64,000 nt of DNA from an uncultured Clostridia bacterium (GCA_947246685.1 CAMXSN010000006.1:3898-67897), one strand, 5' to 3'. Numbered from the stretch's first letter, positions 6,170 to 64,000 are shown. Numbers and translations: made by a program. Notes: generated by a model from the letters alone, not told the origin.

Positions 6170-7075
6170 CTACTCTGCAAGATTGAGCAAATCCGACGCC
6201 GTGATATCAAAGCCTTTGTCGTAAGTATAGTAACTTATGCACGTCTGCTCGCACGAAACTTTGAGCGGAACGGCGGAATGTCTGCCGCTGTATTTCTCCG
6301 TCCTTCTCCAAACACAAAACTTCATCTTGCCGTTGATTTCTGCAATTGCGAAATCTATGGTCGTGTCGTTGACGGAAAATCCGTCTTCTTTTGCGCCTAG
6401 CGTATCGATGAATTCCCTGAACGCTTCTTTCTGCACGGTCTTCATAACTTCCGTCGAACAATCTATCGTCAACGTGCAATAGTATTTGCCGTCGGTATAA
6501 TAGACGTTGTCGTTATGCTTTGACGAAAGTCTTTCTCTACTGGAAATATCGTAAGTGGTGATCTTCTCTTTCATAAGGCGGTTTTCCTCTTCTACGTTGC
6601 CGTTAAAAGAAGCGAAATTGCCCCACGCGCCGACGCTGAGCGCGCCTGTCTGTTTGTCGTAGATTATATCTTTCTTTCTGGTATTTTTAAGAGAATACGC
6701 CGAGTTGCCGTCAAAATAATATTTGTTGGCGCTCGTGCCTCCGTCAAGACCGCTGCCGTATATGATTTCTTGATTGTATATCCGTCCGTCGGTAATCTTA
6801 CGTATAAGATGCGTACGCCGCGAAGCAATCTTGCCGTCGTTGGCGTCAAAACTGAAATATTCTTCTCTGCGATAATTTTTCTCTTGAAGAAAATTCTCGT
6901 AAGTCTCCATAATCAGATCGTAAGCGCTCATATTTTTAACAGGCGTTTTGCCGTCATAGTTGCCCAGATTTTTATCTAAAGGCTGAACCTTGGACCCTCC
7001 GTTACAAGAAACGGAAAACAAACACGACATCGTCAAAAGTACGGCAACCGTTGCGATAAGCAAGTATTTTCTCAT
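6170..7075 (-). CDS. hypothetical lipoprotein
   Basis: Start moved to the internal ATG with GGTGGTGGAGAC upstream. Signal peptide MRKYLLIATVAVLLTMSCLFSVSC carries a lipobox-like Cys. No recognisable catalytic motif. Confidence 0.55.
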   Translation of the reverse strand: MRKYLLIATVAVLLTMSCLFSVSCNGGSKVQPLDKNLGNYDGKTPVKNMSAYDLIMETYENFLQEKNYRREEYFSFDANDGKIASRRTHLIRKITDGRIYNQEIIYGSGLDGGTSANKYYFDGNSAYSLKNTRKKDIIYDKQTGALSVGAWGNFASFNGNVEEENRLMKEKITTYDISSRERLSSKHNDNVYYTDGKYYCTLTIDCSTEVMKTVQKEAFREFIDTLGAKEDGFSVNDTTIDFAIAEINGKMKFCVWRRTEKYSGRHSAVPLKVSCEQTCISYYTYDKGFDITASDLLNLAE

Positions 7076-7361
7076 GTCTCCACCACCATAATTCTTCAAA
7101 TATATTATTCCATAATTCAGATACGATTTGCAATAATTTTTTATTAATTTTGTGATTGCGGCAAAATTTTGTCGCTTGACCGCGCGCGCCGGCGCCGATC
7201 GGCAAACAAATTAGCCTGCATAAACGCTGAAACAGCGATAATGAGACGAACAACCGAGCGCCTTTAACCCGCATATATTATGAAATATTTAACAAATTGA
7301 ACTGCCGCTCTTGTAATTTAGGTAAATCTAATATATAATGTTAAAGTTAGGAGATCACTAT

Positions 7362-8636
7362 ATGAAAAACGCAATGTTTGACAAAGAATGGTTCAAACTC
7401 GACAACGCGGCTAAAATATACCCCGCGGCAAGAAGTTCGAGATGGAACGCAGTGTTTCGAATGTCGGTAGTATTAAAAGAAGAAGTCAAGCCGGAGCTAC
7501 TCCAACAGGCTTTGGACGATATCATAGACAGATTCCCGTCGTTTAGGGTCACGCTGAAAAAAGGATTCTTTTGGTACTATTTCCAATTCATCAACGAAAA
7601 GCCGAAAATACAGGAGGAAAAGACCTATCCGTGCTCGATGATGAGACTTACGGGAAAAGGATACGTATTCAGAGTGCTGTATCATTCGCACCGTATCGCC
7701 GTCGAAGTATTTCATTCCATCACCGACGGCACGGGAAATATAACTTTTCTCAAGACGTTGATACTCAGATACTGCGAGCTATGCGGCGCAGAAATTGCCG
7801 ACGTGGGAGATCTGCTCCATTACGACGACGATCCGACGCCCGAAGAAGTAGAAGACTCTTTCGGCAGATATATCGACAAATCTAAAGGCACGCTTCCGCG
7901 TAAAGAACCCGTAGCGTATCAGATAAAAGGCGCCAAAGAAAAACGCGGCGTACTCAACATTACTCAAGGCAGTATGCCCTTTGAACAGCTGCACGCAACG
8001 GCAAAATCCTACAACTGCACCGTCAACACTTACCTGTCGGCAGTGCTCGCCTACGTGATACTCAACAGGCAGCTGTATGAAAAGAAATCCAAGAAAAAAC
8101 CTATCAGGATTCAAGTGCCGATAAATCTGCGAAAGATTTTCCCGTCGGTCACACTGAGAAATTTCGCCGGTTATTACAATACGACGGTAATGCCCAACGA
8201 GCAGACGTTTGAGGAGATAGTAAGAGAGCTGGACACTCAGCTCAAGGAGAAAATTACTCCCGATTACTGCCAAAAATTTATAAATTCCAACGTATCTTTG
8301 GAGAAAAATCCGATTATCCGCGTCGCGCCTAGATTTCTCAAAACGCTGTTTATGAATTTATCGTTCTACATGGTGGGAGAAAATCTTATGTCTTGCACGT
8401 TCAGCAATATCGGCAACGTGGTCACTCCCAAAGAATTATACGATTATATAGACAGATTCGAATTTGTACTCGGACCTCAAAAATATATGAACAACGCCAT
8501 GACCGCCGCTTCTTACAACGGCACGACTTTGGTCACTTTTTCTCGCACGGCAAAAGACCCGATACTGGAAAGAGACTTTTTCAGAGTTTTGACGGAACAC
8601 GGCATCGAAGTGACGATCAACAGCAACAGGAGGTAA
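7362..8636 (+). CDS. condensation/alcohol-acetyltransferase-like acyltransferase (HxxxD family)
   Basis: ATG at 7362 is preceded by TTAGGAGAT. The conserved FHSITDGTG (HxxxDG) motif is typical of condensation-domain/AATase-like acyltransferases. Length ~424 aa. Confidence 0.6.
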   Translation: MKNAMFDKEWFKLDNAAKIYPAARSSRWNAVFRMSVVLKEEVKPELLQQALDDIIDRFPSFRVTLKKGFFWYYFQFINEKPKIQEEKTYPCSMMRLTGKGYVFRVLYHSHRIAVEVFHSITDGTGNITFLKTLILRYCELCGAEIADVGDLLHYDDDPTPEEVEDSFGRYIDKSKGTLPRKEPVAYQIKGAKEKRGVLNITQGSMPFEQLHATAKSYNCTVNTYLSAVLAYVILNRQLYEKKSKKKPIRIQVPINLRKIFPSVTLRNFAGYYNTTVMPNEQTFEEIVRELDTQLKEKITPDYCQKFINSNVSLEKNPIIRVAPRFLKTLFMNLSFYMVGENLMSCTFSNIGNVVTPKELYDYIDRFEFVLGPQKYMNNAMTAASYNGTTLVTFSRTAKDPILERDFFRVLTEHGIEVTINSNRR

Positions 8637-8638
8637 AT

Positions 8639-9307
8639 ATGAAACAGTGTCGAAAATGCGGCGTCAATATCGACGGAGACTTGGGCAACTGCCCTCTTTG
8701 CGGAGCGTTTGTCGGCGAAGAAAAATCTCCCACAATTTACGAATATCCGCAAGTCAATATAAAAACAAGACAAAAGTTATTCTTGAAAATCAGCATGTTT
8801 ATCACGGTGTTCGTTATCGCGTTGGTCGCGGCTATAAATCTTGCCGTCAATCGCACAATATCATGGTCGCTGCACGTTATGTTCGGTTTTGCCTTAGCAT
8901 GGATATGCATAGGACGACCGACGATAAAGATATTCAACACGCGCAAACATTTGGCATGGAATTTTGCAGGCGCGATAGCTTTGCTTTTCTACATTAATAT
9001 TTGGACGTCAAAACTCGCCAATCCTTGGGCTTTTACTTTGGGTATGCCTATCGTTGTTCTCACTTGGGCGACTGTGTTGGAAATCCTGTGTTTTGCGCAC
9101 CGAGGCGGCAGGGGAAACTATCAAATCGCGCTGACCAAACTGTTCGCGCTATCCGCTATCTGCATAGGGATATCGTTTATATGGACCAAGACGTGCACTT
9201 GGGGATGGTACGTGTGCACTGCGCGAGGATTCGTCGACGTGTTGGCGCTGTCCTTCTTCTCCAAAGACACTTATTTCGGAGAACTGAAAAGACGGTTGCA
9301 CGTATAA
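8639..9307 (+). CDS. zinc-ribbon membrane protein (N-terminal CxxC...CxxC, then ~5 TM helices)
   Basis: The true start is ATG 8639, after AGGAGG, 2 nt past the upstream stop. MKQCRKCGVNIDGDLGNCPLCG is followed by hydrophobic helices. The 8393 start in the track is an in-frame read-through of the upstream gene. Confidence 0.6.
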   Translation: MKQCRKCGVNIDGDLGNCPLCGAFVGEEKSPTIYEYPQVNIKTRQKLFLKISMFITVFVIALVAAINLAVNRTISWSLHVMFGFALAWICIGRPTIKIFNTRKHLAWNFAGAIALLFYINIWTSKLANPWAFTLGMPIVVLTWATVLEILCFAHRGGRGNYQIALTKLFALSAICIGISFIWTKTCTWGWYVCTARGFVDVLALSFFSKDTYFGELKRRLHV

Positions 9308-9325
9308 ATTCGGCAATAAAATATT

Positions 9326-9358
9326 CGCTTATCTACTGCGATAAGCGGATATTTTTTT
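9326..9358 (+). terminator. rho-independent terminator (usable from both directions)
   Basis: Stem cgcttatc / gataagcg with a 6-nt loop, followed by a run of seven T. Confidence 0.6.
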
Positions 9359-9385
9359 AATACATTCACGGCGTTGATTATACTG

Positions 9386-9768
9386 CTATTTATAAAGCTC
9401 TATATTATCCACTGCGGACTTGAATAGACCGTCCATCACCTGCTCTATTTCCTCAATACTGCGCTCCTCTCCTATATCCTTATAAATTATGTCTATCTCT
9501 AACTTACTGCTCTTGAACCACCCGATCGGGACTTTTATTTGATAATACGACGTGTAGATTCTTTCTCCCGATTCATTCAACTTGGTCTTCATTTCCTCGC
9601 TGTAATACTTATATTTTCCGTATTTCTTGTCGTACTTATCTTTTTTTACTAAGGCATTTTTTGAGTTACCCGTTATACATACTTTTATCTCTCTTTCTTC
9701 CTGATTTTTATTTATCAAAGTATAATAATAGTACTGAACGTCTTCAACTCTCTCTGTAAAATCCGTAT
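9386..9768. repeat. 383-bp segmental duplication, copy 1 (partner 11584-11966)
   Basis: Direct base-by-base comparison shows no indels and about eight substitutions, all in the first ~165 nt. The last ~218 nt are identical. Confidence 0.9.
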
Positions 9769-10072
9769 GTATATCTGTCTTCCGGCGATTATAAAATATT
9801 TCCACATTACCATAACGCTCTGTCGGCCAATAATTTTCCTTAATTATGTCTTTAAGGCTCAAGTCGTTCTCACTTATGAAATCTGACGATATGTATGCAA
9901 CATCATTCTCCATTACATTTTTCAAATTATCGTATTCCATATATGTATAGTCCGGATCAATTCCCGACATCAAACAAGCCCAAATTATTCCTAAAATTAT
10001 ACCGGCTAGCGCTATCAATACTGCCAATGTAATTGCAATCCCTTTGATTGCCTTAACTGATACTCTATTCAT
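9386..10072 (-). CDS. membrane-anchored hypothetical protein, paralog A
   Basis: ATG 10072 lies 5 nt after GGGAGG; the GTG at 10078 in the track sits inside the RBS. N-terminal TM anchor AITLAVLIALAGIILGIIWACL. The C-terminal 126 aa are identical to paralog B. Confidence 0.7.
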   Translation of the reverse strand: MNRVSVKAIKGIAITLAVLIALAGIILGIIWACLMSGIDPDYTYMEYDNLKNVMENDVAYISSDFISENDLSLKDIIKENYWPTERYGNVEIFYNRRKTDIHTDFTERVEDVQYYYYTLINKNQEEREIKVCITGNSKNALVKKDKYDKKYGKYKYYSEEMKTKLNESGERIYTSYYQIKVPIGWFKSSKLEIDIIYKDIGEERSIEEIEQVMDGLFKSAVDNIELYK

Positions 10073-10093
10073 AAACACCTCCCTATATCCATA

Positions 10094-11437
10094 TTAAATT
10101 GCGCTGATATATACGTTTCCTGCCGCATAAAACTTGTTTACGAACAGTTTTGCCTTTCTAATTCTTCCATCACTTTCTGCATGTACTTTGTCAAACCAAC
10201 CAGAGTGACAGATAAATTCGTCAAGTATCCCTAAAGCATTCTTTGTATAACCGTATACTATTACGTTATGCCGCGAAATATCAACGCCTTTATTATTCAC
10301 ATCCCAACCTTTTCCTGCCCCTACCGTCATAATCGCAGGATTACCGCTGTCAACAGCCTTTTTAATATTGGTGTAACTAGTGAAATGTGTAGATTTACAA
10401 CTTATACCGTTTTCCTTAAAATATGACTCGAATCCACCGTCAATATCAACATATGTGGCTGCTCCGTCAACATTAGGATTGTTTACACTCAATACTTTTA
10501 CGTGTTTTCTCAATTCTCGCATAATACTTTCTGCTCTAGAGTCAGTAGGCAAAAATTTAATCCATCCTTCTTCCATATCTATACCGTCACTCATCGGACA
10601 TAATTTTTTATTCAATCCTAATCTTTCATAGTATTGTAAAACTATTGTCATCGCTACTAGCGAGCAAGAATTATACATTGTTTTAGGAAAAAGTAAGTCA
10701 TACCCATAAGAAAATTTGCAATAATAATATGTACCATAAACAGTACCCTCACTTCCCATTGAATATAGAATCCTATCGATATCATTTTCTTTAAGTTTAT
10801 TTGCCGCGTCCACCTTTGAATTATTATCATACCTATACATAGTATTGATTGTCTGCGCAAAATAATTGAACTTTTGATCGCTTTTACCAAGTTTTGTCAC
10901 CCTGTGGCGATTGCTCTGGCCCATAGGCATAGGCGTATCAAGTGCTTCTAAATAATCTTGATAATCAAGTTCTCTTAGATATTCCATCGCAGATGCCATT
11001 TGTTCGATATCGTCATAAGAAGCTAATCTATCTGAAGCAATTGAATAAAACTCGCCATTTCTTAAAATAAAATATTTGCCGAATCCACCATAATATTTTG
11101 ATTCCGACTTTCCGAAATACGGTGAATTGCCCTCTCCTCTTTCCAAAATCGACCCAGTGTTCCTGATTACAATCATATAATATCCCTCGAATTCATATAA
11201 ACCGTACAATGGCTCGTGATTGAAATCGTAAAGCTTTTCTATAGAAATAATATTGGGCAAATTTCCGTCTTCAAATTTAAGTCTGAGATTAGCCATAGCA
11301 AAATCTTTTTCTGACTGAGAAAAATCTGTCGCCAAAAGACTTATTTTAATTTCCTCGGCAACTGCGCTACACGTAGTACTGAGAATTAATGCAAGAAGTA
11401 CGCTTAGCACCAGAATAATTATAAGTCTATTTTTCAT
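10094..11437 (-). CDS. secreted papain-fold cysteine-peptidase-like protein (C39/C10-like, tentative)
   Basis: Start at MKNRLIIILVLSVLLALIL (AAGGGGGTGG upstream) gives a signal peptide. The C-terminal domain has candidate nucleophile NSCSLVAM and His in SRHNVIVYGY. Family assignment is by pattern only. Confidence 0.45.
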   Translation of the reverse strand: MKNRLIIILVLSVLLALILSTTCSAVAEEIKISLLATDFSQSEKDFAMANLRLKFEDGNLPNIISIEKLYDFNHEPLYGLYEFEGYYMIVIRNTGSILERGEGNSPYFGKSESKYYGGFGKYFILRNGEFYSIASDRLASYDDIEQMASAMEYLRELDYQDYLEALDTPMPMGQSNRHRVTKLGKSDQKFNYFAQTINTMYRYDNNSKVDAANKLKENDIDRILYSMGSEGTVYGTYYYCKFSYGYDLLFPKTMYNSCSLVAMTIVLQYYERLGLNKKLCPMSDGIDMEEGWIKFLPTDSRAESIMRELRKHVKVLSVNNPNVDGAATYVDIDGGFESYFKENGISCKSTHFTSYTNIKKAVDSGNPAIMTVGAGKGWDVNNKGVDISRHNVIVYGYTKNALGILDEFICHSGWFDKVHAESDGRIRKAKLFVNKFYAAGNVYISAI

Positions 11438-11491
11438 TTTACCACCCCCTTGATAATTATATAATAGCATGCTTATTTCTTTTTATCAAGT

Positions 11492-11523
11492 GTGAATTAT
11501 GTAGAATTATGTAGAATTATGTA
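11492..11523. repeat. 10-bp tandem repeat (gtRgaattat x3.2) in the peptidase promoter region
   Basis: gtgaattat gtagaattat gtagaattat gta read directly from the sequence. Confidence 0.9.
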
Positions 11524-11583
11524 CTTTTATACAATATATGCATAATTTTGGCTATTATGCAGTTTAGGTCAATATAAAATAAC

Positions 11584-11966
11584 TTATTTATAAAGCTCTA
11601 TGTTATCCACTGCGGACTTGAATAATCCGTCCATCACCTGCTCTATCTCTTCAATACTGCGCTCCTCTCCTATATCCTTATAAATTATGTCTATCTCTAA
11701 CTTGCTGCTCTTGAACCACCCGATCGGGACTTTTATCTGATAATACGACGTGTAGATTCTTTCTCCCGATTCATTCAACTTGGTCTTCATTTCCTCGCTG
11801 TAATACTTATATTTTCCGTATTTCTTGTCGTACTTATCTTTTTTTACTAAGGCATTTTTTGAGTTACCCGTTATACATACTTTTATCTCTCTTTCTTCCT
11901 GATTTTTATTTATCAAAGTATAATAATAGTACTGAACGTCTTCAACTCTCTCTGTAAAATCCGTAT
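11584..11966. repeat. 383-bp segmental duplication, copy 2 (partner 9386-9768)
   Basis: See copy 1. Confidence 0.9.
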
Positions 11967-12276
11967 CATCGTTCGTTTTGCGCCTATTAAACTCTATTCT
12001 TACATTGCCGAGCAATTCATAATCATCGCTAAATGCATCTTCCCAATAAATATCTTTAATTTCCAATTTGTTTTCATTAATAAAGTCAGACGAAATATAT
12101 GCTACGTCATTCTCCATCACTTTTTTCAAATTATCGTATTCAATGTAAGTATAATCCGGATTAATTCCCGACGTCAAACAAGCCCAAATTATTCCTAAAA
12201 TTATACCGGCTAGCGCTATCAATACTGCCAATGTAATAGCGATCCCTTTGATTGCCTTAACTGATACTCTATTCAT
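11584..12276 (-). CDS. membrane-anchored hypothetical protein, paralog B
   Basis: 230-aa ORF. The N-terminal ~45 aa and C-terminal 126 aa match paralog A. The central ~40 aa are unrelated in sequence and 2 aa longer. Confidence 0.7.
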   Translation of the reverse strand: MNRVSVKAIKGIAITLAVLIALAGIILGIIWACLTSGINPDYTYIEYDNLKKVMENDVAYISSDFINENKLEIKDIYWEDAFSDDYELLGNVRIEFNRRKTNDDTDFTERVEDVQYYYYTLINKNQEEREIKVCITGNSKNALVKKDKYDKKYGKYKYYSEEMKTKLNESGERIYTSYYQIKVPIGWFKSSKLEIDIIYKDIGEERSIEEIEQVMDGLFKSAVDNIELYK

Positions 12277-12365
12277 AAAACCGCCTTATCTAATTTATAG
12301 CAAATGCTTTTATAACTTAATGATATCATAGATTTGCCATTTATTCAAGTAGCAATTAAAAAATA

Positions 12366-13661
12366 TTAATTATAAAGTTTTATATTATTTGCCGCGGACT
12401 TGAATATCCTATCGAATTTATACTGAGCATAATAAATATCAATATAGCCGTCGGATTGTTCTTGATTAGGATAAGAGCAAAACAGCAAGCTCAACATGCA
12501 ATATCTGCCGTCTTCAAGTTCTATAAAAACGTCATAATTACTTACCGCAAGTCCTAAAATACCCGACGCATCCGTGGCTCTGTATTTATAACCGCCATAA
12601 TTTTTGTCAAACTCTGCGTCGCTCGCGTCATAGTCAATATATAACGTGCACGTTAAATACAAAACGTCGCCGTTTTTCTCTGTTCTGCTCAAACAGTATT
12701 TATAATCTGATACGTTATCTGCCGACAAAACATCATCGCAGTGAATGTAGACGATAGGATCGATAAACCGCAGTAAAACGTTACCTGCGCTAGCATTTTC
12801 GTCAATTTTCGTACCGCGACGGTCATATAAACCGTATACGTCTTCTAATGCAAATCTGTTGTCTGCGATAAAAGATTGCGCCAAATATGCCGCTTTGTCG
12901 GTAAATATGCTCGGCAAATCGTCAAATCCGATCACGCAAGCGGAAATCTGTTCGCTAGTCTGCACCTTTTCGACTGCCGATTCAAACGTAGTCTCAAATA
13001 TTTCGCTTACACGGCTGCTTTGCATATTATCGCCCGTCAAGGTCATATTCAATTCCATTACGCTTTTCTCCCCGTTGCTTCCTATAGGAGCGGAAAAAGT
13101 ATATACTATGTTGTATTCTTCTTCATATTCGCTTAAAAACCTTAACGTAATATCCGAAACCTGGTATGTCCCGACGCCGTAATCGTGATTGAAATCTGCC
13201 GGAGTGCTATTAGACTTTGAATAACCGACGACGCGCACGTTAAAATCATATTCCGATTTATCTTTGTTTTCCAACGTAAACGCATAATACATTACGTTCT
13301 CAACTTTTTTATTAAAATCAGGCTTTTTTCTTGACGACGAAATATATACGATCTCCACGTTTCCCCAACTGTCGTCGTTAACCAATCCTATAAATTTCAT
13401 CCCGTCGTCATATATGAATTCGTCCGACGGGTATATGACGTCATCACCCATTACCGTACGCAAATCGCTGTAATGAATTAACGCGTTGACCTCTCTCGGA
13501 GCATAAAATGCATCTACGATCGAAAAGAACGCTCCGGCGAACCCCAGCGGTACGAAAAATAGTCCTGCAAGCATAACTACGACAAAAATCTTAATACTCA
13601 TGCTGATTGTCGCCATTGCGGAAATTGCTGTACCCGCCATGATCTTCTTGATTTTCGCCAT
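12366..13661 (-). CDS. membrane-anchored hypothetical protein with two tandem copies of the paralog A/B ectodomain
   Basis: 431 aa with RBS AAGGGGGG. It has an N-terminal hydrophobic region. Both halves end like the 230-aa paralogs (FESAVEKV / FKSAANNIKLYN versus FKSAVDNIELYK). Confidence 0.6.
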   Translation of the reverse strand: MAKIKKIMAGTAISAMATISMSIKIFVVVMLAGLFFVPLGFAGAFFSIVDAFYAPREVNALIHYSDLRTVMGDDVIYPSDEFIYDDGMKFIGLVNDDSWGNVEIVYISSSRKKPDFNKKVENVMYYAFTLENKDKSEYDFNVRVVGYSKSNSTPADFNHDYGVGTYQVSDITLRFLSEYEEEYNIVYTFSAPIGSNGEKSVMELNMTLTGDNMQSSRVSEIFETTFESAVEKVQTSEQISACVIGFDDLPSIFTDKAAYLAQSFIADNRFALEDVYGLYDRRGTKIDENASAGNVLLRFIDPIVYIHCDDVLSADNVSDYKYCLSRTEKNGDVLYLTCTLYIDYDASDAEFDKNYGGYKYRATDASGILGLAVSNYDVFIELEDGRYCMLSLLFCSYPNQEQSDGYIDIYYAQYKFDRIFKSAANNIKLYN

Positions 13662-13746
13662 ATAAAAATCCCCCCTTGCGAGTATTTCACTTATACTACA
13701 CTCGGGGGGACCTGTTTGTATCGAAAAATATGTTAATTTTGTAAAT

Positions 13747-16089
13747 CTATTCGTTTACGCCGTCATTGCCTTTTATATCGCCCGTCTTTTTGGACTTGGA
13801 TTTGAACAGCTTGATTTGGCTCTTGTTCTTGACGAACAAATTGAGCAATACAAAAAATACGCTCATCAAAATAGCCGCTCCCAACATGCCCAGACAAAGT
13901 CCCGTCTCGGGAGTTACGAAAATCTTTTTGTATTCCGTTACTTCCGAATGCATGGTTGTCGGAAGATCGGGTAACGTATATGCCTCGGAGCCGTCGTTGT
14001 CGCCGTAATAGACGCGTATTACGTTGATACTCTCGCCGTTGACCTTGACGCTGACCTTACCGCCGTTGATCTTGCAATCCTTTTGATAAGGCACGACAGT
14101 AGTCGATCCCAATTCGTTGCACGCAGCTCGCACTCCGCTCATGTATTGCATAGAGCTTGCGTTGATCGGTCCGAAACCGTCTACGTTGAGCGATACGTCC
14201 ATAGCTCTTGCATTGGAATTGACTATCTTTATATACAGCGTCTGCTCCGCCTCGTCGACAGACGCAGAAGAATATACGCCCTTGATATCTATGCCGGTGT
14301 CTATATAACGCGTGCCGGTATTGTTGGCAAAAAGCATCTGATTGAAATAATTGGGAGTCAGAACTATGTTCTGCGAATCGAACCATATCATATTCAAATC
14401 CCAGCACTGCGCGTTGATCTTGGCGAAAGTCGGCGCGTAAGACGCCATCTTGACTATATCGCCGTTTCGCTCCAAGGCAGTGAGATAACTTGCCTCTTCT
14501 ATTGCCGACCACATATTGTTTTGCGTCCAATATTTGCCTATGCCCCAACAGCTTGCGGCGTATTCGCCCACAAAAACCTCCGCGCCGTTTCTATCGTAGC
14601 TGTCGTATCGGTCGTTGTTCTTAAACAGCTTGTTTTGGCTTGTGTAATAATGCTCGTCGACTATCGTGTCGGGATATTTCTCATTGACAATCTCCCACGC
14701 CTCGTCTATATAATCGCCGCTGAACTGATACGATGCCGACGATATGATTTTGATATCGGGATACTTGGCTTTGACGGCGTTGTACAGCGCATCAAAGTTT
14801 CTCCAATACACTTCGCCCCAATTCTCATTGCCCAGCCCCAAATATTCGAGATTGAAAGGTTGGGGATGACCGTTCGCTGCGCGCTTGGCTCCCCATTGGG
14901 TATCTACTCCGCCGTTGGCGTATTCTATCAGGTCGAAAATATCCTGTATATAAGCGTTGAATTTATCGGTACCCGGACGAAGCGCGATTGTATCGAGATA
15001 TTTCTCCCATTCGTCGTTACTCATTCTGCCGTTTTTATACGCCTTGGAAACTTTGTTGTAGTTCGCCTCAAATTGACATATCATTCCCACATTGAGAATT
15101 GGCACGGGTTTTGCTCCCAAATCGTCGCAAAGTTGAAAATACTCGTGATATCCCAGAGAAAAAGTATTGTTGTAATATTTACCTTTTTCGTCCTCGCGCC
15201 AAATATTGCGATATTGCTCTCGCTGTTCGAGCGGACCTATGGTCTTTTTCCAATCAAAGAGATGCTCGAAGGAATCGCCTTCGGCAAGACAGCCGCCGGG
15301 GAAACGTACGAACGCGGGAGAAAGATCGTCAAGAGCCTGATAGAGATCGTCTCGCAACGTGACGTATTTCCATTGCTCGTCGCCATAACCGTAAGCGTCG
15401 GTGGGAGTAAGAGATACAAAATCTATATCGAGACTGCCCTTGCCTTGGATTCTAATATTAAGACTGCCGTCTTCGCTGACGTTACTCTTGAGCACCGCCC
15501 CTATTTTAGTCCAAGTATTCCTACTCTTAGGCAATAAGAGCTGAGCCTCTTTGGAATTGTTTTCCGAAATCAAAGCGGCATGTATACTACCCTCAAAATC
15601 ATTGAGCCTGACGTACATCGACAGTTCGTACTCCACGTCTTTGCGGAATCCCATATCCGCAGTAGCCATCTTCTCTTTCTTGTATCTCTGCGTCATCGTA
15701 GTATAGAATTCCACAAAACCGAGATTTTCCAGATTAATTTCGCCGTCCGCGTCCAATCTCAAAAAGGACTGATTGTTTGCGTTGAGCCCGTCTCTTTCGC
15801 TCTTAATCACCTGCGCGCCGTCGCTGTCGATATTCCAATACGCTTTGGGTTCCGCCTCATACTCAAAGCTGCCGTTGTTGACAAGCTCGGAGACAAGACC
15901 GCCGTCGCCCGCAAAAGAGATATCTTCCAAAAAAAGCCCGTACATAGTATCGGCGATCTCCACTCCCATATTGCTCTTGGATACCGTCGCGGAAATCGTA
16001 CTTGGCGCGGAACACGCGCTGAATATACATAGACAGGCAAGCGCCGTTGCCACTATGCCTACCGTTATAATACGCTTTTTGAATTTCAT
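13747..16089 (-). CDS. GH51-type alpha-L-arabinofuranosidase with N-terminal CBM-like domain, lipobox and C-terminal TM anchor
   Basis: 780 aa. Motifs RFPGGCLAEG, LGLGNENWGE (acid/base Glu) and VFVGEYAA (nucleophile Glu of the plant/Bacteroides-type GH51). N-terminal CIFSAC lipobox. C-terminal GLCLGMLGAAILMSVFFVLLNLF helix. Confidence 0.8.
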   Translation of the reverse strand: MKFKKRIITVGIVATALACLCIFSACSAPSTISATVSKSNMGVEIADTMYGLFLEDISFAGDGGLVSELVNNGSFEYEAEPKAYWNIDSDGAQVIKSERDGLNANNQSFLRLDADGEINLENLGFVEFYTTMTQRYKKEKMATADMGFRKDVEYELSMYVRLNDFEGSIHAALISENNSKEAQLLLPKSRNTWTKIGAVLKSNVSEDGSLNIRIQGKGSLDIDFVSLTPTDAYGYGDEQWKYVTLRDDLYQALDDLSPAFVRFPGGCLAEGDSFEHLFDWKKTIGPLEQREQYRNIWREDEKGKYYNNTFSLGYHEYFQLCDDLGAKPVPILNVGMICQFEANYNKVSKAYKNGRMSNDEWEKYLDTIALRPGTDKFNAYIQDIFDLIEYANGGVDTQWGAKRAANGHPQPFNLEYLGLGNENWGEVYWRNFDALYNAVKAKYPDIKIISSASYQFSGDYIDEAWEIVNEKYPDTIVDEHYYTSQNKLFKNNDRYDSYDRNGAEVFVGEYAASCWGIGKYWTQNNMWSAIEEASYLTALERNGDIVKMASYAPTFAKINAQCWDLNMIWFDSQNIVLTPNYFNQMLFANNTGTRYIDTGIDIKGVYSSASVDEAEQTLYIKIVNSNARAMDVSLNVDGFGPINASSMQYMSGVRAACNELGSTTVVPYQKDCKINGGKVSVKVNGESINVIRVYYGDNDGSEAYTLPDLPTTMHSEVTEYKKIFVTPETGLCLGMLGAAILMSVFFVLLNLFVKNKSQIKLFKSKSKKTGDIKGNDGVNE

Positions 16090-61134: not shown

Positions 61135-62088
61135 TTACTTTTTGTCGTATTTGTAAAAGCCTTCGCCCGACGCCATACCGAGTTTTCCTTCGTCAATATA
61201 TTTTTTGAGCAGTTTTTCCATACCTTTGAAATTATACGGCGCCAAAAACGAAGGAATCTTGACGTACATCGCCACAATGTTGTAAGCCGTGGTCAGTCCT
61301 ACTGTATCTATAATACGGAACGGACCTTTTGGAGAGCCTGTGCCAAGCGTCCAAGCCTTGTCGATACTCTCGGGATCGGAAACTCCGTTGACGTATAGAT
61401 CAAGCCCCGAGAAAAGCAACGGCACCAACATAGAGTTGAGCAGATACCCTGACTTTTCTTTCCTCACAGGGAGCGCTATCATTCTGATATCCTTGGCAAA
61501 CGACATTATCAAATCGAAATACTTCTGCTCTGTCTTTGCCTGCGACATTATCTCGGCGGTGTTGTTTTTCCATATACTATTTGCAAAATGTAGCGAAAGA
61601 TATCTGTCGGCTCTGCCGGTGTATTTTGCAAATTTAGACGGGAGTAAAGTCGACGAATTGGTAACTACCACTGTCTTTTGCGGCAACAACGGCGCAAGAG
61701 CTTTATAGAAAGCTATCTTGTCGTCGGCGTTTTCCGCCATGGATTCGATTACTAAATCCGCATCCGCTACGGCCTTGCCCATATCCAACTCGAGCTCTAT
61801 GGACTCGTAAGCTTTCTGCGCCTTTGCCAGACAATCGTCCTTATCAAAAGCGTCGTAATCGGCAATGCCTCTCGCCCAATTGGCAGGCGTCTGACCTTCG
61901 GGAGTAGCCATAAGTTCGATCGTCTCGTCATAAGTTTTTTTCAGCGCGTCCAATTTTGGACGGGTACGTGATATGCTCCCCTCGCTTCTCAGCCATATAG
62001 TCACGTCAAAACCGCAATATGCCGCTTGAAAAGCTATCTGACTGCCGAGAACGCCGCCGCCTGCTACCACAACTTTTTTGATTTCCAT
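61135..62088 (-). CDS. 3-hydroxyacyl-CoA dehydrogenase family protein
   Basis: RBS GGGGGAG. Rossmann motif VVVAGGGVLGSQIA, plus 3HCDH-type N- and C-domains. Confidence 0.75.
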   Translation of the reverse strand: MEIKKVVVAGGGVLGSQIAFQAAYCGFDVTIWLRSEGSISRTRPKLDALKKTYDETIELMATPEGQTPANWARGIADYDAFDKDDCLAKAQKAYESIELELDMGKAVADADLVIESMAENADDKIAFYKALAPLLPQKTVVVTNSSTLLPSKFAKYTGRADRYLSLHFANSIWKNNTAEIMSQAKTEQKYFDLIMSFAKDIRMIALPVRKEKSGYLLNSMLVPLLFSGLDLYVNGVSDPESIDKAWTLGTGSPKGPFRIIDTVGLTTAYNIVAMYVKIPSFLAPYNFKGMEKLLKKYIDEGKLGMASGEGFYKYDKK

Positions 62089-62261
62089 TTTCTCCCCCTG
62101 ACAGTATCGATTTTTGAGCTATGCGTCTTGATTATTCGCAAATATTTTCAACCGATACCCTATATTAATATATTATCACTTTATATCGGATAAAATCAAT
62201 ACTTTTATGATTTTAACAAGCTTTTTTGGGCAGAATAATGTCTCATACTACTAAAAAATAA

Positions 62262-62290
62262 TTGCATTAGGCAAAAATATAGTATATAAT
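62262..62290 (+). promoter_or_regulatory. sigma-A promoter of the retron transcript
   Basis: TTGCAT - 17 nt - TATAAT. The predicted +1 falls at ~62297-62298, exactly where the a1 repeat begins. Confidence 0.6.
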
Positions 62291-62297
62291 AATAAAC

Positions 62298-62454
62298 GAG
62301 ATTCTAGATATTTAACCATAATTATATTTTGGTTAGCTTCGATTTTATATGCGAAGCGAGTAAAATTGATTCCATTCTATGAGGATGTTTTAACATCTTT
62401 TTGCTTGGAATCTCAAAGATGTTAAAACATCCTCTAGCGTATATGTAGAATCTC
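62298..62454 (+). ncRNA. retron non-coding RNA (msr-msd)
   Basis: Terminal inverted repeats gagattcta (62298-62306) and tagaatctc (62445-62453), with an unpaired G at 62307 as candidate branching G. Two small msr hairpins (62313-62335, 62336-62357). A perfect 20-bp msd hairpin gaggatgttttaacatcttt / aaagatgttaaaacatcctc (62381-62434). Located directly upstream of effector plus RT. Confidence 0.75.
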
Positions 62455-62481
62455 CATAATAAATAATTTAAGGATTAATAA

Positions 62482-63375
62482 ATGAATATCCTGGAAGATA
62501 AATTTCTTACAAACGTTTGCGAACAATTAAAAACCCAAAAAAGAATAAATCGCAAATCAAACGTAATGCCATTAAAATTATATTTTATTTGTGGGAAAGA
62601 ATTTGATAAAAGCAAACGCGAAAATAGATCTTTACTAAGAGATTTAATAGAAAAGTCCGATATTAATGCCAAATGTATATTTGCAGAAGAGATGTATTTT
62701 GATGACTTAGAATATAATCTTTTGCAATTTGAAAATGTTTTGGCTAATATTAGTGAAAAAATCATTATCATTCTAGAAAGTCCCGGCACTTTCTGTGAAT
62801 TAGGTGCTTTTGTAAATGTTGAAGAATCAAAAAGCAAATTAATTGTAATAAATGAAGACAATCCTAACTATGATAATTCTTTTATTACTAAAGGTCCACT
62901 TCAGCTAGTAAATAAAGAAAACAGTCTAGTTAAATTTCAAGGCGAACTCATAAAACATCCTGAAGTTAAAAAACTAATCAAAAATTTAGCCAATAATAGT
63001 ATAACCCCATTAAAACCAAACCTCTCAAGTGAAATTGAACTAAAATCGTTAATTTGTGAATTATTGCATTTATTTTATATGTTCTGCCCTATTTGCAAAT
63101 TTGAATTAGAAAAACTTTATAAAAATATATATGAAATAAAAGAAATAAAAATTAAAGAATCCAACAAGCATGGCATGGATTCGATAGATAAAGTTATTAA
63201 ATTAATGATAAAATTAGATTTAATACGTTATAGATGTGGATACTATATACTCTCAGATAATTTATCCATAACCAAACCACTTTTCAAAAACAATGATGAA
63301 GGCAAAATTCGTACACAATATCTCGCGAGATTATACAAAAAGGATAAAAATAGGTTAAAATGTTATGATAATTGA
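62482..63375 (+). CDS. retron effector, nucleoside 2-deoxyribosyltransferase-like (NDT) domain plus C-terminal winged-helix-like domain (St85/Sen2 RcaT-type)
   Basis: 297 aa, AT-rich, RBS AAGGA. IIIILESPGTFCELGAF fits the NDT-like ExPG...ELG core. C-terminal IDKVIKLMIKLDLIRYRCGYYIL looks like a wHTH. Position msr/msd - effector - RT as in type II retrons. Confidence 0.65.
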   Translation: MNILEDKFLTNVCEQLKTQKRINRKSNVMPLKLYFICGKEFDKSKRENRSLLRDLIEKSDINAKCIFAEEMYFDDLEYNLLQFENVLANISEKIIIILESPGTFCELGAFVNVEESKSKLIVINEDNPNYDNSFITKGPLQLVNKENSLVKFQGELIKHPEVKKLIKNLANNSITPLKPNLSSEIELKSLICELLHLFYMFCPICKFELEKLYKNIYEIKEIKIKESNKHGMDSIDKVIKLMIKLDLIRYRCGYYILSDNLSITKPLFKNNDEGKIRTQYLARLYKKDKNRLKCYDN

Positions 63376-64000
63376 TAATATTTCAAAATCTTTAATGATA
63401 GATAAAAATTTGATAATATCTATGTCTAAAAATAATAACAAATACAAGTCATATTATATTGGCAACAACGGACGCCAACGTTTGATTCAACATCCATCAA
63501 AAGAAATTAAGTTGTTACAATACTGGTTAGTAAATAATTTGCTTAATAAGTTACCTTGTTCAAAATATGCAACTGGATATGAACCAGGATGCTCTATAAT
63601 AAGAAATGCAGCAATACATGCTGATAATAAATATATATTACATACGGATATTAAAGATTTTTTTAATTCTATCACAGTAAACATGGTAGAATCAATTTTA
63701 TCAAAATCTAATCTAAATTTAATACAAGAAGATATTAATTTTATTATAGATGTAGTATTCTATAAATCTAAAATATTTCCGACCGGCAGTGTGTCTTCCC
63801 CCTGCCTTTCAAATAGAGTTATGTATAATTTTGATTTAGAACTTAAAAGTGAACTGGACACTTTTTATGGACTACAAGAATTCAAATTTACAAGATATGC
63901 TGATGATATAATAATTTCGAGCAATTATAAAATTCAAACAAATATAGTAGATATTATAAAAAACTTATTAAATAAATATGGCTTTGAAATTAATAAAAAT
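63365..64000 (+). CDS. retron-type reverse transcriptase, 3' end beyond the right window edge
   Basis: Not in the ORF track (no stop). Hand translation from ATG 63365, which overlaps the effector stop by 11 nt, gives ...GRQRLIQHPSKEIKLLQYWL...GYEPGCSIIRNAAIH...ILHTDIKDFFNSI...PTGSVSSPCLSN...FTRYADDIIIS. These are RT motifs 1-5 with the retron-style RYADD box. Confidence 0.85.
   Translation, partial: MIIDNISKSLMIDKNLIISMSKNNNKYKSYYIGNNGRQRLIQHPSKEIKLLQYWLVNNLLNKLPCSKYATGYEPGCSIIRNAAIHADNKYILHTDIKDFFNSITVNMVESILSKSNLNLIQEDINFIIDVVFYKSKIFPTGSVSSPCLSNRVMYNFDLELKSELDTFYGLQEFKFTRYADDIIISSNYKIQTNIVDIIKNLLNKYGFEINKN

Follow-up and report, generated by a model that had tools for sequence, protein, structure and literature searches.

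Tandem membrane-anchored paralogs of an uncultured Clostridia bacterium probably record old divergence, patchy gene conversion, and loss of the peptidase gene between them

An AT-rich islet with four head-to-tail genes

We analyzed a 64,000-nucleotide (nt) stretch of DNA from an uncultured Clostridia bacterium (GCA_947246685.1, CAMXSN010000006.1:3898-67897), referred to below as the window, and within it an islet at positions 9386-13661 that carries a family of membrane-anchored proteins around the gene of a secreted peptidase. A preliminary description, made from the sequence alone, had pointed to two paralogs with matching ends and a dissimilar middle and had proposed that one surface loop was being diversified in the manner of a cassette. 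The data below suggest a different history, in which the two genes, famA and famB, are probably old tandem paralogs whose divergence has been overwritten in patches by gene conversion, and in which recombination between them appears to have deleted the peptidase gene from some strains.

The islet holds four genes, arranged head to tail on the minus strand in the order fam2x, famB, peptidase gene, and famA. It is AT-rich, as first described, with a GC content of 36.1% compared with 45.2% for the 64-kb window. The upstream paralog, famB (11584-12276, minus strand), encodes a signal-anchored protein of 230 residues, and the downstream paralog, famA (9386-10072, minus strand), one of 228 residues when counted from its ATG. 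Both have a basic N-terminus, a single transmembrane helix (residues 3-35 in the famB model), and an ectodomain of ~190 residues. Homologs do not share the cysteine found in the anchor, and we therefore read this region as a signal anchor and not as that of a lipoprotein. The gene between the paralogs (10094-11437, minus strand) encodes a secreted clan-CA cysteine peptidase of the Peptidase_C39_2-like type, with an open reading frame (ORF) that extends to 11470. Only 21 nt separate its stop codon from the start of famA, and this gap contains no terminator. The famA ORF runs two further codons upstream to a GTG (10073-10078); the ATG at 10072 is the likely start, because it matches the famB start and lies behind a ribosome-binding site common to both genes.

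The third family gene, fam2x (12366-13661, minus strand; 431 residues), has one transmembrane anchor, after which the ectodomain occurs twice in tandem in diverged versions (at about 12948-13502 and 12369-12947; 28% and 24% identity). A profile search recovered both as separate matched stretches (E = 2.2e-76), in line with the two-copy architecture already proposed for this gene. The fam2x-famB-peptidase-famA string is closed by a terminator-like hairpin and T-run (9326-9347, minus strand; 8-pair stem with 4 GC pairs and a T-rich tail), besides which we found no credible terminator-like site within 9200-13800.

Divergence between famA and famB changes abruptly along the genes

A DNA alignment of famA and famB placed their 3' block at 381 nt, with eight substitutions and no indels. 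All eight fall within the gene's final 154 nt. Seven are coding (gene nt 540, 573, 627, 630, 651, 652, and 675) and all seven are synonymous, an outcome with a probability of 6e-6; the eighth lies in the stop codon, TAG in one gene and TAA in the other, so that the last 126 residues of the two proteins are identical. The preliminary description had reported each of these points (an indel-free block with about eight substitutions in its first ~165 nt as read on the plus strand, exclusively synonymous coding changes, and the TAG/TAA difference), and its account holds. The longest exact repeat between the genes is 229 nt (famA 9540-9768, minus strand, identical to famB 11738-11966), and there is a further exact repeat of 64 nt. 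Homology ends at the ribosome-binding site on one side and at the stop codon on the other.

The remaining regions fit the earlier picture less well. The 5' block differs at 18 of 198 nt (91% identity), close to the 85%-90% similarity first given; it is not, however, a single homogenized flank, because codons 1-34 look converted and codons 35-66 anciently diverged. The center (codons 67-104), described as ~115 nt of unalignable, scrambled sequence, can be aligned at the protein level, where 17 of 38 residues are identical and a single two-codon indel suffices.

To follow these contrasts we used Nei-Gojobori estimates of synonymous and nonsynonymous divergence (dS and dN; pS, proportion of synonymous differences) for each segment of famA against famB. 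Codons 1-34 have a dS of 0.08 and a dN of 0. Codons 35-66, which form the most conserved motif of the family, have a pS of 0.67 (dS about 1.7) with a dN of only 0.05, for a dN/dS of about 0.03. In codons 67-104 synonymous sites are saturated (pS 0.84) and dN rises to 0.58. Codons 105-179 show zero differences in 225 nt (probability 3e-5 at the neighboring rate), and codons 180-230 have a dS of 0.31 with a dN of 0. The heterogeneity is significant, with adjacent segments differing in synonymous change at Fisher p values of 1e-4 to 3e-8.

This patchiness of synonymous divergence argues for an old duplication that was overwritten by several gene-conversion tracts and held by purifying selection. 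At least three tracts of different age are suggested, over codons 1-34, 105-179, and 180-230, and the 229-nt identical stretch would be the most recent of them. The putatively unconverted core covers gene nt 104-312, or codons 35-104 (famB 11965-12173, minus strand; famA counterpart 9767-9969), and is thus wider than the dissimilar center alone. Codons 35-66 and the C-terminal half appear to be held by purifying selection. The flanks had previously been attributed to purifying selection or gene conversion; by this segment-wise measure both operate. The earlier view that this is no simple recent duplication is also upheld, given near-saturated synonymous sites in codons 35-104 and homology that stops at the ribosome-binding site and the stop codon.

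Two slot-specific forms of the center among strains

We collected 16 further copies of the genes from at least 13 assemblies (exact-sequence clusters and contigs), for a total of 18 with the two in the window. The center occurs in two forms in these 18 copies and in no third form. Each form is tied to its slot, famB-type (B) upstream and famA-type (A) downstream of the peptidase gene, except in one contig at 4x coverage (L024, from ENA). At 8205-8897 of that contig a B-type center occupies the A slot, and codon 227 has changed from GAG to TAG, which shortens the product to 226 residues (P0010); if real, this would be a conversion of the whole center, but it may be a misassembly. The two centers are 45% identical to each other and at most 36% identical to any homolog in other species. 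Import of either center from another species' paralog was rejected on this ground, the two being closest mutual relatives.

These results bear on the proposal that the center is a diversity cassette, that is, one surface loop diversified or swapped from a repertoire, with the constant flanks serving as recombination handles. Several features are as such a cassette would predict: the dN of 0.58 in the center next to 0.05 alongside, its position in the main indel-prone region of the family, a second species (genome G052) with a like contrast between flanks and center, and the B-type center in the A slot of the low-coverage contig. We nevertheless consider a cassette quite improbable. Silent donor cassettes of the kind known from pilE/pilS and vls were not found, a whole-genome search returning only the four ectodomain copies of the islet, and in place of many variants of the variable segment there are two slot-fixed forms in 18 copies. 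The two forms are also each other's nearest relatives, synonymous saturation in and beside the center marks the divergence as old and not ongoing, and the aligned columns of the center are no more variable by substitution than the rest of the ectodomain (0.29 compared with 0.29-0.38). What we observe is closer to the alternative that the preliminary description itself had named, an old divergence with no further variants, but with flanks homogenized several times and not once.

Exchange between the two copies may have left very recent traces as well. An independent 100-kb contig (14x coverage) has the same two-copy arrangement and is 99.95% identical to the window, which speaks against an assembly artifact in this particular record, a possibility raised when the islet was first described. 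Across a 12.7-kb stretch of this contig only six differences from the window were found, three in each paralog and at matching sites (gene nt 435, 439, and 458), which lie at 9621/9640/9644 in famA, inside the 229-nt stretch, and at 11819/11838/11842 in famB. Two of the three changes are nonsynonymous (D147Y and Y153C), and no donor for the patch was found elsewhere in the genome. The patch reflects either very recent copying between the paralogs or a repeat collapsed by the assembler. More broadly, recombinant haplotypes are frequent: all four gametes were present for 57 of 105 site pairs, 30 of which come from the single-copy genes described below by themselves, and A-type centers were found with B-type 5' ends.

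A fused single-gene form without the peptidase

Eight contigs carry a different arrangement, consisting of fam2x, one gene of 228 codons' product length, and a DUF6320 gene, with the peptidase gene missing. Five come from JGI (L027-L031), two from ENA (L035 and L037), and one from Logan (L036). The single gene joins the upstream flank of the B slot to the downstream flank of the A slot, and the flanks of these contigs are 98.1%-99.5% identical to the window. The switch from B to A lies between nt 156 and 159 in four of the JGI contigs (L027, L028, L029, and L031), at nt 40-103 in L035, and at or before nt 39 in L030, L036, and L037. At this one slot, then, codons 35-52 of the single gene are of the B type in some contigs and of the A type in others. 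Since synonymous differences between these types are near saturation, the presence of both in one slot implies that at least one of the forms descends from a two-copy genome. The simplest account of the fused form would be a ~2.2-kb deletion by crossing-over between the direct repeats. Either this deletion occurred more than once, or allelic exchange between strains followed it.

Could collapsed or misjoined repeats have produced the near-identical 3' block, the three-site patch, and the fused contigs? At 229 and 64 nt, the exact repeats are longer than common k-mer sizes, two of the contigs in question (L024 and L035) have only about 3-4x coverage, and one fused contig (L029) ends within a repeat-like junction. 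Set against these points, the two-copy form and its slot-specific single-nucleotide polymorphisms recur in at least six independent assemblies, one of them the 100-kb contig at 14x. The JGI fused contigs are 15-66 kb long, except for L031 at 4.6 kb; fused genes carry private alleles (nt 27, 428/429, and 558), and the JGI sources have zero members in both the peptidase cluster and the B-center cluster. Logan assembles at k = 31 and should break at a branching 64-nt repeat, yet its contig is fused. The segment-wise contrast in dS is, moreover, independent of the stretch that might have been collapsed. An artifact is thus a very improbable explanation of the whole pattern.

The junction in L029 deserves separate mention. 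At 6688-6766 of this JGI contig, directly after the stop codon of the fused gene, comes intergenic sequence that is otherwise found upstream of famB, and with it the contig terminates. The fused gene could have been duplicated in tandem, or the assembly graph could contain a loop.

The peptidase

The window's peptidase matches PF13529 (Peptidase_C39_2) at 24.7 bits, just above the cut-off of 24, and five out of five orthologs match the same profile (best E = 1.5e-8). It comprises a signal peptide with a conserved cleavage motif (AxA, followed by E), an N-terminal region of ~230 residues, and a C-terminal predicted catalytic domain. The profile match and the signal peptide together confirm the secreted cysteine-peptidase-like gene that had been noted between the paralogs. 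C269, H401, and D417 are invariant in the five orthologs, which are about 50% identical overall, and their motif context makes them the putative catalytic residues. Translation probably begins at the ATG at 11437, which gives 447 residues and is also the start chosen by other gene callers. Among strains the protein is nearly invariant. No relatives were found among PDB sequences, and Pfam, NCBIfam, and PADLOC gave no match to LXG or other toxin families. A resemblance between the family ectodomain and the N-terminal region of the peptidase, as between Spi and SpeB, was considered and rejected (hhalign probability 0.1).

A small family tightly linked to the peptidase across the genus

The family is tiny, with 38 proteins recovered in a profile search of 1.84 billion representatives. 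Its ectodomain has no credible match in Pfam, NCBIfam, or PADLOC, and a search of PDB sequences returned one hit (E = 0.11). Its genes are present in 12 of the genus's 22 other genomes, and 51 genomes from other genera of the taxonomic family have none. Among the homologs, length varies more in the center (23-47 residues, with a gap fraction of 0.31) than in any other segment, and the aligned columns there are conserved at least as well as elsewhere (0.29 compared with 0.29-0.38).

The orthologous peptidase occurs in eight of 23 genus genomes, the window's included, and in every case it is directly followed by one to three family genes; it was never seen without family genes among the 23. These genomes are interrelated, and the gene-content counts are therefore not independent. 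One genome (G065) has a family gene upstream of the peptidase too, as in the window. Four genomes (G046, G050, G052, and G061) have family genes and no peptidase. In yet another species (G045, C1:67627-68044), intact family genes flank peptidase remnants that are interrupted by one TGA and two TAA codons, which looks like an independent decay of the peptidase. No third component was common to all loci in a comparison of three of them.

Tandem pairs elsewhere in the genus show related patterns. In G052 the pair repeats the mosaic, with codons ~50-77 and the last 75 codons near-identical around a divergent, indel-bearing middle, and in G065 the two members of the pair are 100% identical.

The direction of change in these genomes is relevant to a further possibility, namely that the single-gene form is ancestral and that the peptidase gene and a second paralog were inserted from a relative, the mosaic being the product of import. 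The low GC content of the islet (36% compared with 45%), the differing genomic contexts of the module in other species, and the fact that single-copy contigs are as many as two-copy contigs would all be expected under such a history. We regard it as improbable for three reasons. The occurrence of B-type or A-type codons 35-52 in one slot, with near-saturated differences, requires a two-copy ancestor for at least one fused form; the family-peptidase-family order in G065 and the decayed peptidase in G045 suggest that loss is the recurrent direction; and the six-difference comparison points to exchange between copies inside one lineage.

Predicted structure of the anchored proteins

AlphaFold2 gave a confident model of famB, with a predicted local distance difference test (pLDDT) score of 88.3 at full length; for the ectodomain alone the score was 90.3, with a predicted TM-score (pTM) of 0.87. 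In the model a strand is followed by two helices, then by a long antiparallel sheet, and finally by a C-terminal helix. Residues 67-104 form two short beta-hairpins with loops, and pLDDT is lower where the sequence varies most. The hairpins and loops, the dip in pLDDT, and the indels together suggest an exposed excursion. The variable segment had been expected to be a surface loop; the hairpin-and-loop structure agrees with this, and exposure itself is suggested by the model.

Foldseek searches of the PDB, with and without the transmembrane helix, returned nothing below E = 1e-3. The best among the 50 matches listed were LpqN (6E5D), 3LYD, PsbP, and START/PYL-type proteins. Assignment to an LpqN, PsbP, or START/PYL fold was rejected (TM-scores of 0.2-0.4). 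The order of elements in the ectodomain is like that of Mog1/PsbP/LpqN-like alpha-beta sandwich proteins (6E5D, 3LYD, and PsbP chains), which match with probabilities of 0.69-0.99; TM-scores of 0.24-0.40, a root mean square deviation of 6-17 Å, and E > 1e-3 are too poor for an assignment.

A recombination history of the islet and the role of its proteins

Taken together, we favor a history of old tandem paralogs, patchy conversion over an ancient divergence, and reciprocal recombination that deletes the peptidase gene, and we give this overall reading a probability of roughly 0.7. Under it, famA and famB are old paralogs that now lie as direct repeats to the two sides of the gene for the secreted C39-like peptidase. 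At least three conversion tracts would since have overwritten their flanks, leaving nt 104-312 unconverted. Within this core, purifying selection would hold codons 35-66, and codons 67-104, in a region that tolerates indels, would drift or adapt into two stable, slot-specific forms. Heterology at the diverged core may be what halts the tracts there, or selection may act against losing either center form. The same repeats would also recombine reciprocally, so that many natural strains have lost the 2.2-kb peptidase segment, together with half of either paralog, and retain one fused B/A gene. As a separate and less certain step, the anchored proteins might act as extracytoplasmic partners of the peptidase, with specificity set by the variable region.

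Several considerations weigh against this history. All sequences are short-read metagenome assemblies, in which repeat collapse may mimic the identity of the 229-nt stretch and the three-site patch, and some of the fused contigs may have been made by the assembler (L035 has only 2.9x coverage). The order of the ancestral states, two-copy or single-copy, is a matter of parsimony. With dS saturated in the center, positive and relaxed selection would look alike there. Finally, the partnership with the peptidase is one that we infer: the ectodomain has no confident structural relative, its best match reaching a TM-score of 0.33-0.40, and it does not resemble the peptidase's N-terminal region (see above; hhalign probability 0.1).

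As to what the anchored proteins do, we tentatively prefer a tethered protein of the inhibitor or immunity type, one that might still be useful after the peptidase is lost, while holding that this has less than an even chance of being correct. The preference over a dedicated substrate is based on the persistence of the family without the peptidase, never the reverse, and on the position of the genes, which directly follow it and whose products face outward. An immunity or inhibitor function, as first suggested for these genes, would be compatible with the pattern of gene content in the genus. Only a little less probable, in our view, is that the proteins are instead substrates of the peptidase, surface docking partners, or unrelated surface proteins from the same operon. 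The adjacency of the genes would fit these roles just as well, and the ectodomain resembles neither peptidase inhibitors nor the enzyme's own N-terminal region. On the other hand, strains and species without the peptidase still have intact family genes that are subject to purifying selection, where a dedicated substrate or docking partner would be expected to decay, and the orthologous peptidase was never seen without them.

A bolder extension, which we think unlikely, is that the islet belongs to an undescribed system of antagonism and self-protection in gut Clostridia. In such a system a Sec-secreted, envelope-damaging peptidase would be paired with tethered, outward-facing immunity proteins of a new fold, the center would set specificity, and repeated deletion through the flanking paralogs would yield immune non-producers that live beside producers within shared host populations.

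Resemblance to known paralog systems

One parallel is with immunity genes that belong to type VII secretion systems (T7SS). The tipC genes of Streptococcus and the esaG genes of S. aureus are tandem arrays with blocks of homology at their ends and a variable middle, and recombination between paralogs there gives rise to chimeras, gene loss, and expansion; TipC itself is membrane-bound, faces outward, and is encoded beside the gene of a secreted protein (Garrett et al. 2022, PMC9484751). Likewise, famA and famB are paralogs in tandem whose 5' and 3' blocks are conserved and whose middle varies (as in the G052 pair), and their recombination, too, gives chimeras and gene loss in natural strains. 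The islet differs in having no T7SS or LXG toxin, its neighbor gene encoding a C39-like peptidase with Sec-type secretion, and in holding just two single-domain copies and one double-domain gene. Pfam, NCBIfam, and PADLOC gave no homology of the family to TipC, EsaG, or TsaI, and no TipC was among the 50 Foldseek matches listed. Sequence, fold, and neighboring gene all set the islet apart from these systems; the likeness is one of evolutionary mode and not of ancestry.

A similar mosaic is known from babA and babB of H. pylori, in which near-identical N- and C-terminal regions enclose a divergent middle and conversion produces chimeric genes in isolates (PMC4552749). The bab loci (babA, babB, and babC) are dispersed, unlike the tandem famA and famB, so that recombination swaps genes without deleting one that lies between them. 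Their products are Gram-negative outer-membrane adhesins with phase-variable repeats, to which the family here has no homology.

Cysteine peptidases co-transcribed with a dedicated inhibitor are also familiar, as in staphopain/staphostatin and SpeB/Spi. Staphostatins and Spi are small, soluble proteins that act inside the cell, and C10 proteases of Bacteroides are paired with staphostatin-like inhibitors. Here, famA directly follows the gene of a secreted clan-CA peptidase after a 21-nt gap, an order kept in eight genomes. Gene order is all that these inhibitors share with famA, famA and famB being membrane-anchored and outward-facing, and no staphostatin-type fold was among the 50 Foldseek matches listed (START/PYL-type, PsbP, and LpqN).

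The dynamics are thus of a known kind for paralogs and are seen here in an orphan protein family. The islet offers a natural example of tandem paralogs working as a recombination device, in which conversion homogenizes, a diverged core separates two specificities, and crossing-over removes the gene between. It also draws attention to a small orphan family whose structure is predicted with confidence but has no relative among solved structures, and which is in tight linkage with a secreted cysteine peptidase. Should the inhibitor or immunity role prove true, the fused form would represent a new polymorphism of producers and immune non-producers in the rodent gut microbiota, and the ectodomain a new inhibitor fold for clan-CA peptidases; should it prove false, what is left is ordinary concerted evolution.

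Other features of the islet and the window

The double-domain gene fam2x is unchanged in all strains, including those that lack the peptidase. Between famB and the peptidase start lie three tandem copies of a 10-nt unit (11494-11522, minus strand), which are identical in all six of the other two-copy assemblies that cover them and thus do not hint at any switching of copy number. Promoter-like sites in the islet (26) were not above the expectation from shuffled sequence (19 ± 4.3).

A 309-residue ORF with an N-terminal hydrophobic segment (6170-7099, minus strand) has no match in Pfam, NCBIfam, or PADLOC; it adjoins the islet in all strains, where it appears as a 301-residue call. At the far end of the window (62001-64000), GC content falls to 24%-29%, compared with about 45% elsewhere.

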